From positions 1 to 37,482 of IMG/VR virus record IMGVR_UViG_2565956717_000009: 37,482 nt of DNA; one strand, 5' to 3'. Origin of the DNA: a virus (Duplodnaviria; Heunggongvirae; Uroviricota; Caudoviricetes). Under the pieces are notes generated by a model that was given only the letters and a program-made list of their open reading frames with translations, was not told the origin of the DNA and did no database searches. A program made the translations under genes and the position numbers. Shown piece after piece: positions 29,114 through 32,489 of the stretch (its first letter is position 1; each line of letters opens with the position of its first letter).

Positions 29114-29830
<717 letters not shown>

Positions 29831-29837
29831 CACGTAA

Positions 29838-30275
29838 ATGATTAAAGAACGTATTTCTTATATCATTCCGATTGCGATGGATGAAGGCAACCCAGTAACT
29901 CCAGTTCTTATCTATGAAATGGATAAAGACTCCCATGAAGTGGATCTATCATTTGGCGCTTTTTTTATCGGCCTTAAGGCTACAAAAAAATATTCCATAG
30001 GCATTGAGGTTTTCAATGCTCAAGAAATACCGATACCAATTGACACAAAACTGTACTCCAACCATAAGTTTTTTACGGTAGCAGAAGCCAACGATGGAGA
30101 AACCATCGTATCAACTTCTATGAGAATTAACTTCCCAAGGGTGAAAATTATCAAGCCTGGGATATTCGAAGTTAGAGCATCACTGGTTAATCCTGATAAA
30201 GGCGAAGTAATTGATGTAAAAAGTTCGTTTTTTGACGTGAAGATAACAGGATCGGTTCGCGATGAGTTTAGATAA
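29838..30275 (+). CDS. Hypothetical protein, first gene of the cI-downstream (rex-position) cassette
   Basis: 145 aa, starts 7 nt after the cI stop; visibly A+T-rich; no recognised motif. Confidence 0.6.
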   Translation: MIKERISYIIPIAMDEGNPVTPVLIYEMDKDSHEVDLSFGAFFIGLKATKKYSIGIEVFNAQEIPIPIDTKLYSNHKFFTVAEANDGETIVSTSMRINFPRVKIIKPGIFEVRASLVNPDKGEVIDVKSSFFDVKITGSVRDEFR

Positions 30276-30633
30276 CAAGGTTGCTCAGCTTCGTCCAAAT
30301 CAAAACATATCTCGCCCAATTGGACACTATTCCACTGATGATGCATACTCACGGCATGCTGGAGGAAACGGCGGAGGTAACATGCTTGAGGCTAGAGTTG
30401 CAAAGCTAGAGTCTGATGTTGAATACATCAAGCGCGATCTCGCTGAAGTAAAGTCAGATATAAAATCTGTAGATTCTCGTCTGTCAGGTATTGAGACAAG
30501 CATTAGCTCAGCAAAAATCACCATCAAGGCATCTGCGGTCGTTGTCAGTTTCGTGTTCGCATTTTGCGCCTACATTTTTGGAAGTTATGTTTCCAAAATC
30601 CTTGATGCCTTAAACGGACTCGTTCTTAAGTAA
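30262..30633 (+). CDS. XhlA-like tail-anchored membrane protein (coiled coil + C-terminal TM), second gene of the rex-position cassette
   Basis: 123 aa; Gly-rich N-terminus, heptad-like LEARVAKLESDVEYIKRDLAEVKSDIKSVDSRL, C-terminal hydrophobic ASAVVVSFVFAFCAYIFGSYV; 14-nt overlap with upstream gene. Confidence 0.6.
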   Translation: MSLDNKVAQLRPNQNISRPIGHYSTDDAYSRHAGGNGGGNMLEARVAKLESDVEYIKRDLAEVKSDIKSVDSRLSGIETSISSAKITIKASAVVVSFVFAFCAYIFGSYVSKILDALNGLVLK

Positions 30634-30823: not shown

Positions 30824-30886
30824 AACCATCTGCGGTGATAAATTATCTCTGGCGGTGTTGACATAAATACCACTGGCGGTGATACT
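30824..30886 (+). promoter_or_regulatory. Operators OL3-OL2-OL1 with PL (lambda-type)
   Basis: aaccatctgcggtgata (30824-30840), tatctctggcggtgttg (30844-30860), taccactggcggtgata (30868-30884); -35 TTGACA 30858-30863, -10 GATACT 30881-30886. Confidence 0.8.
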
Positions 30887-31134: not shown

Positions 31135-31518
31135 ATGACACGCAGAACTCAGTTCAAAGGCAATTCACGTTCTCGTCGTCGTGAGCGTTTAAAGGCAAAG
31201 GCATTAGCTAACGGCGTACTGGCCCGCGAAGAAGCAATAAGTTCAGAAGTATTACACCGCCCTACTCTAAGCAGAGCGCAGATTCAGGCTAAAGGTACTC
31301 ACGAAACGCCTGAGCGCATAGAAGACGCTAAGCCAATTAAGTTCATGGCACAGGACGTGATCTGGCAACAGAAAGAATACAGACGCAATCTGGAGAGAGC
31401 GGCCATTGTGTACGCGAATGAGTTTGGACATAAGCAACCAGAAACTGGTGTATGTCTTCCAAATGTAGCTCTTTACGCAGCAGGCTACCGGAAATCAAAA
31501 CAACTGACGGCGAGGTAA
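31135..31518 (+). CDS. N: Antiterminator N (P22 gp24-like)
   Basis: 127 aa; Arg-rich N-terminal motif GNSRSRRRERLKAKA; C-terminus ...LPNVALYAAGYRKSKQLTAR resembles recalled P22 gp24; GGAGG RBS. Confidence 0.75.
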   Translation: MTRRTQFKGNSRSRRRERLKAKALANGVLAREEAISSEVLHRPTLSRAQIQAKGTHETPERIEDAKPIKFMAQDVIWQQKEYRRNLERAAIVYANEFGHKQPETGVCLPNVALYAAGYRKSKQLTAR

Positions 31519-31520
31519 TT

Positions 31521-31892
31521 ATGGGTCAGGAAGAAAAATATGAGCTTAAAAAGCTCATTGGAGAAGACGCCATAGAAGAAATTGCAGCATTAACAACAGC
31601 TATAAAGAATATTAGGTATGCGCTAAATACGCTTATCTCCTCATGCGACAAAAATAGCAGGGAATTTTTGATACTTGGCGCAGCTCTAGGAATAGTTGAT
31701 GCGGCAACGCTTCACCTAATTACTCATGACGATATTCTTATTGAGCCGTATGAAACATTACTGCTTGTCAGGAAAAAAATGGCTGATGCCGCAGCAAATG
31801 GAGACCTTCAACTTTACATCGACTTAAGGAAAGTATTAAGGCGAATGGTCAGAACTGAAGGAGATATCCCCCCTGACAAAATAAGGGGGTGA
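31521..31892 (+). CDS. Hypothetical protein directly after N (sieB/ral position)
   Basis: 123 aa from ATG 31521, 2 nt after the N stop; A+T-rich; no recognised motif. Confidence 0.55.
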   Translation: MGQEEKYELKKLIGEDAIEEIAALTTAIKNIRYALNTLISSCDKNSREFLILGAALGIVDAATLHLITHDDILIEPYETLLLVRKKMADAAANGDLQLYIDLRKVLRRMVRTEGDIPPDKIRG

Positions 31893-31984
31893 GAGGATTT
31901 TACTATTTTTCTCGCTGTAGGGGTACACGAGAACCACCGAGCCTGATGTGGTTAAAAGACAGGCATACTAATAAACACTGCACT

Positions 31985-32012
31985 GTGTATTCATTCCAAC
32001 GAGTGAATACAC
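31985..32012 (+). other. Long imperfect inverted repeat (RNA hairpin) in the 228-bp noncoding stretch
   Basis: gtgtattca...tgaatacac, extendable to about 13 bp with one mismatch. Confidence 0.4.
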
Positions 32013-32073
32013 GGAGCAATGTCGCTCGTAACTAAACAGGAGCCGACTTGTTCTGATTATTGGAAATCTTCTT

Positions 32074-32099
32074 TGCCCTCCAGTGTGAGGGCGATTTTT
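32074..32099 (+). terminator. tL1-like rho-independent terminator
   Basis: gccctc-cagtgt-gagggc followed by gatttttta. Confidence 0.55.
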
Positions 32100-32120
32100 T
32101 ATCTATGAGGATATGAATAG

Positions 32121-32489
32121 ATGTCAAACATCAAAAAATACATCATTGATTACGACTGGAAAGCATCAATAGAAATTGAAATTGACCATGACGTAATGAC
32201 AGAGGAAAAACTTCACCAGATTAATAATTTCTGGTCAGACTCTGAATACCGACTCAATAAACACGGCTCTGTATTAAATGCTGTATTAATCATGCTGGCG
32301 CAACATGCTCTGCTTATAGCAATTTCAAGCGACTTAAATGCATATGGTGTTGTGTGTGAGTTCGACTGGAATGATGGAAATGGTCAGGAAGGATGGCCTC
32401 CAATGGATGGTAGTGAAGGAATAAGAATTACCGATATCGATACATCAGGAATATTTGATTCAGATGATATGACTATCAAAGCCGCCTGA
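32121..32489 (+). CDS. Ea10-like protein (by size and position; recollection)
   Basis: 122 aa between the N-proximal gene and cIII, as for lambda ea10. Confidence 0.45.
   Translation: MSNIKKYIIDYDWKASIEIEIDHDVMTEEKLHQINNFWSDSEYRLNKHGSVLNAVLIMLAQHALLIAISSDLNAYGVVCEFDWNDGNGQEGWPPMDGSEGIRITDIDTSGIFDSDDMTIKAA

Follow-up and report, generated by a model that had tools for sequence, protein, structure and literature searches.

In the window (the whole 37,482-nucleotide stretch, IMG/VR record IMGVR_UViG_2565956717_000009), which is a mosaic lambdoid phage or prophage of P22-like/Kapi1-like character, the region following the antiterminator gene N very probably consists of two independent mosaic modules of the PL operon: hkaQ, encoding a small helical protein, and a PreS module composed of a hairpin, an sRNA and the terminator tL2a, with the sieB-like gene hkaP missing between them. 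The region is mostly already known, as the PreS sRNA locus plus the known ORF hkaQ, and the main value of the analysis is corrective: the apparent riboregulator is PreS, by which lambdoid phages raise the synthesis of the host beta-clamp. The first-pass annotation had read the region as a candidate defence or anti-defence gene with its own RNA-level control; its observation was confirmed, and its interpretation was partly supported. The features are:

29117-29830: lambda-type cI gene.
30858-30886, + strand: promoter PL (TTGACA-17-GATACT; 10/12 matches in the promoter scan).
31135-31518, + strand: antiterminator gene N, 933W/H-19B type, 127 aa (Pfam N_peptide, 9.8e-16).
31521-31892, + strand: hkaQ-family gene, 123 aa here (120 aa normally), predicted all-helical.
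31868-31892, + strand: C6 run and CCCCC(C)/GGGGG hairpin ending just before the hkaQ stop codon (alignments, local fold).
31885-31900, no strand: junction at which the 545-bp sieB-like hkaP cassette of HK620, with tL1, is absent (alignments).
31893-31965, + strand: HK620-type spacer, in HK620 upstream of the hkaP start (alignment).
31985-32012, + strand: conserved hairpin 5' of the PreS +1 (fold energy, covariation).
32014-32100, + strand: Hfq-dependent sRNA PreS (LPR1), ~88 nt (identity to lambda).
32049-32075, + strand: PreS seed region (primers P838/P839, P888/P889).
32073-32100, + strand: intrinsic terminator tL2a, the 3' Hfq-binding end of PreS (terminator scan).
32121-32489, + strand: ea10 (DUF2528; Pfam DUF2528, 1.8e-47).

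The early-left operon lies on the + strand in the window's orientation. Its promoter, which on reading the sequence we take to be the lambda OL/PL, drives this leftward early operon (N, hkaQ, PreS, ea10); cIII, kil, RecT and a Gp157-family gene follow downstream of ea10. At the nucleotide level the N gene is 98.6% identical to that of 933W. Its final ~65 nt (31453-31520) occur both in the 127-aa N of 933W type and in the 90-aa N of HK620 type; in the window the 933W-type N is joined to hkaQ, and a 90-aa N precedes every other hkaQ copy with N examined.

The 228-bp noncoding stretch between hkaQ and ea10 (31893-32120), described earlier as structured, is indeed so (-74.5 kcal/mol, z = -5.0 versus shuffled sequences). 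It has three parts: an HK620-only spacer, which the alignment showed not to be shared with lambda or 933W; a conserved block; and the last 20 bases, which form the ea10 ribosome-binding region. From ~31966-31979 through the T-run at 32100 the sequence is near-invariant among lambda, 933W and HK620 regardless of the gene upstream. Positions 32014-32101 were identical to the PreS of lambda (NC_001416) at 88 of 88 bases, with 1 mismatch to 933W and 4 to HK620, and the match ran from the +1 (GAGCAATGTCGCTCGTAACT) to the U-tail. Judged by its sequence, the noncoding region is the already described lambda sRNA PreS/LPR1. This Hfq-dependent sRNA was found in lambda between ral and ea10, with tL2a as its 3' end (Silverman et al., bioRxiv 10.1101/2024.10.31.621285); it gives bands of ~88 nt and ~68 nt in the lytic cycle only, pairs with the dnaN leader and opens its ribosome-binding site, leading to more beta-clamp, represses alaS, and promotes both phage DNA replication and the yield of progeny (bioRxiv 10.1101/2024.10.31.621285). 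PreS is also covered in a review (PMC12197685). The +1 was placed at 32014 from the cloning primer P810 and the Northern sizes of the preprint; going by the published size only, the processed form of ~68 nt would start near 32033.

The likeness to lambda PreS extends from the 88-nt sequence to the operon, the PL-sense strand, the site immediately upstream of ea10, the tL2a end, the seed and the complementarity to dnaN; the upstream neighbour differs, being ral in lambda and hkaQ in the window. In the seed, the positions altered in the M1 (CTG, 32053-32055) and M2 (GAA, 32063-32065) mutants are intact. Perfect complements of 12 nt (-47 to -36) and 11 nt (-27 to -17) were found between PreS and the MG1655 dnaN leader, a length of 11 nt being reached by 3 of 2000 shuffles. 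This exact-complement search was used instead of unconstrained RNAduplex, which returned a meaningless full-length PreS-dnaN duplex no better than those of shuffles. Since the sequences are identical, the PreS of the window should act as that of lambda does.

No Rfam family matched the window at the gathering score, PreS matching no family of the release searched; sub-threshold RyhB and weak S15 matches reflect the terminator only. HnrS (EcOnc10-12) was rejected as the identity of the RNA, HnrS lying in the late genes. A GTG ORF of 48 aa (31889-32035) does exist in the stretch, and a hypothetical protein is annotated there in some phage records; that the stretch encodes this small protein is nevertheless extremely improbable, given that the ORF spans two module boundaries with different histories and that the variation compensates RNA pairs and is not codon-like.

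The long hairpin reported at 31985-32012 stood up to analysis. Its stem of 12 bp (14 bp when counted over 31983-32014) carries a CAAC loop and folds at -17.7 kcal/mol (z = -6.3), and its 3' end at 32012 is one base before the PreS +1. In an alignment of 28 representatives, taken from 92 distinct module copies (phage records and IMG/VR contigs), there were four unrelated stems, all in register: GUGUAUUCAUUC, AAUGACCA, AUAGCAGA and AAUGCGGA. Compensatory double changes were present at 8 of the 12 pairs and 98.2% of the cells were paired over the 28 sequences, versus 27-48% in the control in which the partner was slid by 1-3 columns. RNAalifold predicted the same helix, and one internal helix of PreS covaries as well, with A-U replaced by G-C in 11 sequences. 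The preservation of a PreS-abutting hairpin by compensatory evolution, with four stems, goes beyond the preprint, the text of which makes no mention of the hairpin, RNase E, RNase III or a transcription start.

The inverted repeat changes in sequence from one phage group to another, in the manner of coevolving operators, which would suit a DNA palindrome serving as a protein-binding site, or else an RNA element of the opposite strand. Such a role is quite unlikely: read on the opposite strand, the U.G pairs (at one position in 26 of the 28 sequences, at a second in 9) would become C.A mismatches; the minus strand folds more weakly (-13.1 kcal/mol); and the constant spacing of 1-3 nt between the repeat and the PreS 5' end speaks for a role in RNA. 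The U.G pairs and the folding energies thus favour a hairpin acting as PL-sense RNA.

The promoter scan found no -10/-35 elements before the PreS +1, and a promoter of its own for PreS was rejected, there being no hexamers and the bases from -12 to -7 varying freely between hairpin types. This and the restriction of expression to the lytic cycle suggest that PreS arises by processing: it would be cut from the PL transcript, and the hairpin may mark or protect the 5' cleavage point. We infer that the hairpin helps to define the PreS 5' end through such processing. The hairpin-PreS junction fits the RNase E consensus poorly. Processed, terminator-ended Hfq sRNAs exist, for example the 3'UTR-derived sRNAs of enterobacteria; PreS resembles them in having no detectable promoter of its own, a Rho-independent 3' end and expression only with the parent operon, and differs from them in being flanked on both sides by coding genes within an antiterminated operon and in the covarying hairpin at its 5' boundary. 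In HK022 (L010, 660-812) IS903 is inserted within the 5' arm of the hairpin and PreS is intact, a natural test case; because PreS is kept there, the hairpin may be dispensable.

The terminator at the end of the module consists of a stem (32073-32094) followed by T6 (32095-32100), with -12.9 kcal/mol and z = -4.5, so that PreS ends in a GC-rich stem and poly-U, as Hfq-dependent sRNAs do. A terminator had been proposed at 32074-32099 as tL1-like; the terminator is real, but it is homologous to tL2a and not to tL1, because HK620 annotates the same site as tL2A and has its tL1 inside hkaP, that is, within the 545-bp segment missing here. The PreS terminator has also been equated with lambda tL2a (bioRxiv 10.1101/2024.10.31.621285). 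The terminator scan found no credible intrinsic terminator between PL and tL2a, including the interval between N and hkaQ. With tL1 gone, tL2a is consequently the first intrinsic terminator after PL, and an N-independent transcript of ~1.2 kb carrying N, hkaQ and PreS would be expected. In a cassette-less phage N, HkaQ and PreS may therefore all be made from this immediate-early transcript, whereas HK620 has tL1 ahead of PreS; in the same way, PreS expression in the window, with no tL1 upstream, may not need N, in contrast to lambda. That PreS may be an immediate-early product in phages lacking the sieB/tL1 cassette is a second point beyond the preprint. Rho-dependent termination between N and PreS is possible. 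The ea10 Shine-Dalgarno (GAGGA, 32107-32111) lies just beyond tL2a and the ea10 start 20 nt past the terminator, so ea10 expression needs read-through of tL2a.

The hkaP cassette of HK620 (L002, 2385-2935) is flanked by an imperfect direct repeat of 11-13 bp (left, GGGGGTGAAGAGG; right, GGGGTAAGAGG), and this repeat at its bounds suggests that the cassette was gained or lost by short-homology recombination. E. coli TW10590 has the same cassette-less junction as the window, so that the junction is not an assembly artefact.

The same hairpin-PreS block was found downstream of ral (lambda), L0079 (933W), hkaP (HK620) and Nmad5; 2237 of 5426 complete E. coli genomes (41%) carry it, as do 387 phage records. 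Searched with the covariance model of the module, the window gave one copy and the loci of distant hkaQ homologues gave none, so that the two modules are independent. These results bear directly on the proposal of a defence or anti-defence function for the ORF, with the downstream hairpin and terminator as its own cis-acting RNA control. Its favourable points are that relatives carry sieB, ral, Nmad5 and other genes in the slot after N and that the ORF belongs to no known family; the hairpin-to-terminator block is, in contrast, a separate module, nearly invariant behind unrelated genes, identical to a trans-acting sRNA and missing from the distant hkaQ loci, and we consider the proposal very unlikely. 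The claim of RNA-level control of the gene itself was accordingly abandoned, the stretch being an independent conserved module that encodes the trans-acting PreS. For the protein taken by itself, a defence or anti-defence role is possible, the PADLOC and fold results speaking neither for nor against it.

A diverged PreS-like module lies upstream of gene 17 in Salmonella P22-like phages (ST104, L), distinguished by an insert of 13 nt, a seed that differs in part and a different terminator stem; it was located at 701-810 of L011, at 701-810 of L012 and in IMG/VR loci such as L055, L078, L094 and L043. Every combination of hairpin type with PreS body type is seen, a sign that the two have recombined. 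Copies of the Salmonella phage P22 type go unmentioned in the text of the preprint, whose search used a cut-off of at least 92% identity, and this diverged Salmonella/P22-type PreS, recombining independently of the hairpin type, is a third addition to it. The PreS pattern scan of genome contigs returned mostly lambda-identical DNA in unrelated taxa, plus four chance coding matches. The lambda-identical copies were in assemblies of Pseudomonas, Shewanella, Bradyrhizobium, Kitasatospora, Bacillaceae and others (L015-L017, L021-L027, L029-L031), on contigs of low coverage, some of them ~48.5 kb long, and are most likely contamination with lambda DNA.

The other module is a genuine coding gene. 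The 123-aa ORF noted after N, in the variable accessory slot that carries sieB or ral, runs from an ATG at 31521 to a TGA at 31890-31892, and its dN/dS of 0.146 (versus a 63%-identical homologue) points to purifying selection. Its start lies 2 nt past the stop of N, and its Shine-Dalgarno (GAGG) is contained in the 3' end of N; its translation is probably coupled to that of N. The gene had been called A+T-rich; its GC content is below that of the window, but only mildly (40.6% versus 46.9%, with 48.2% for N). The product had been taken as soluble: the AF2 model is helical (four helices, pLDDT 73.7), but solubility is less certain, given a strongly hydrophobic helix at residues 49-67 (Kyte-Doolittle 19-residue mean 2.03).

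The window hkaQ has 98% nucleotide identity to hkaQ of HK620 (AAK28865; phrog_7374), which is annotated "unknown" and occupies the same position 2 nt after N. The two loci differ in three respects: HK620 has the convergent sieB-like hkaP next to hkaQ and the window lacks hkaP; the N upstream is of the 90-aa HK620 type in HK620 and of the 127-aa 933W type in the window; and the HK620 protein ends in DIPLTK whereas that of the window ends in DIPPDKIRG. The last difference is due to the C6 run at 31868-31873, which has one C more than HK620, TW10590 and all E. coli copies among the matches listed (each of these aligns over 371 nt with the 372-nt query); the frame of the last codons is shifted by the extra C, the usual protein being 120 aa with the DIPLTK end. 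Either a true mutation or a sequencing error in the homopolymer could account for it.

That the ORF is of no recognised family was borne out. HkaQ had no match in Pfam (E <= 1, including SieB PF14163 and N_peptide) or in NCBIfam, and none of the PADLOC-DB defence profiles matched at E <= 1. It did match phrog_7374, of function unknown, along the full-length profile (1.1e-77, residues 1-117), and this match and the position directly after N place it in that family. Remote homology and structure prediction, proposed earlier as a check, yielded the helical model but no informative match: single-sequence and profile searches of the PDB gave chance matches only, and the fold comparison was likewise uninformative. 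Lambda Ral and SieB share the slot after N and the early-left operon with HkaQ without sequence or profile similarity. No similarity to Ral was detected, phrog_7374 being the sole PHROG match, and none was found to 933W L0079.

The hkaQ family is tiny and rare among phages. A word-indexed search of 5.8 billion proteins returned 5 clusters, an exhaustive HMMER scan of 1.8 billion representatives returned 5 true relatives, and a profile search added two further members. Two long repeat proteins (P0009 and P0010) were rejected as relatives, matching only via a PHDD-like repeat. All members with a named organism are from Enterobacterales (E. coli, E. albertii, Symbiopectobacterium), several others coming from metagenomic reads; among complete E. 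coli genomes hkaQ is present in 96 of 5426 (1.8%). The conserved core covers approximately residues 20-80 and includes the invariant motif IVDAATLHL..H.D.L.EP, and the short homologues (92-93 aa) have no helices 3-4.

RefSeq/PGAP names the protein "antitermination N domain protein", which implies that HkaQ is a component of the N antitermination system. Apart from the name, this agrees with hkaQ lying always directly after N and with a shared homology block that starts ~65 nt inside the end of N. Against it, BLASTP to the N of the window gave E = 22, the protein matched neither N_peptide nor any other Pfam or NCBIfam model and has no similarity to a PF26859 protein, the longer database versions start in another frame of N, and lambda and 933W antiterminate without hkaQ. 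We found no support in the sequence for the RefSeq label, and membership in the N system is highly improbable. Some database versions of HkaQ extend upstream to a start in another reading frame of N.

As for the function of HkaQ, its neighbourhood was compared among relatives. The gene follows N directly in five lineages (39-63% identity) and converges on a SieB-family gene in most of them; hkaP of HK620 is annotated as "putative superinfection exclusion protein", and other E. coli prophages have Ral (strain PK8217) or an Nmad5-family gene in the slot after hkaQ. HkaQ might have a functional link with superinfection exclusion of the SieB type, for instance by conferring escape from, or immunity to, SieB-like abortive infection: an hkaQ-like gene is convergent with, and sometimes overlaps, a SieB (PF14163) or sieB-like gene in the HK620, P0008, P0025 and P0026 lineages. 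Lambda sieB, however, adjoins N without any hkaQ, so that the adjacency may reflect slot position alone, and hkaQ occurs without SieB in the window, in TW10590 and in the strains with Ral or Nmad5 in the slot; we regard a specific link to SieB as doubtful. Our best guess, a tentative one, is an early counter-exclusion or host-takeover protein. A more far-reaching and rather speculative possibility is that HkaQ founds a new immediate-early counter-exclusion family (acting, for example, against SieB-type abortive infection), made together with PreS on a single N-independent PL-tL2a transcript, with the hairpin as a dedicated PreS-releasing signal. HkaQ is in any case a small orphan early gene product that can be tested for counter-defence.

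Two overlapping ORFs between cI and OL/PL (29838-30275 and 30262-30633; 145 and 123 aa) occupy the slot of lambda rexA/rexB. Pfam and PADLOC gave no significant match for either, the second showing weak XhlA and CorA-like matches and nothing else; both are candidates for an exclusion system expressed from the prophage.
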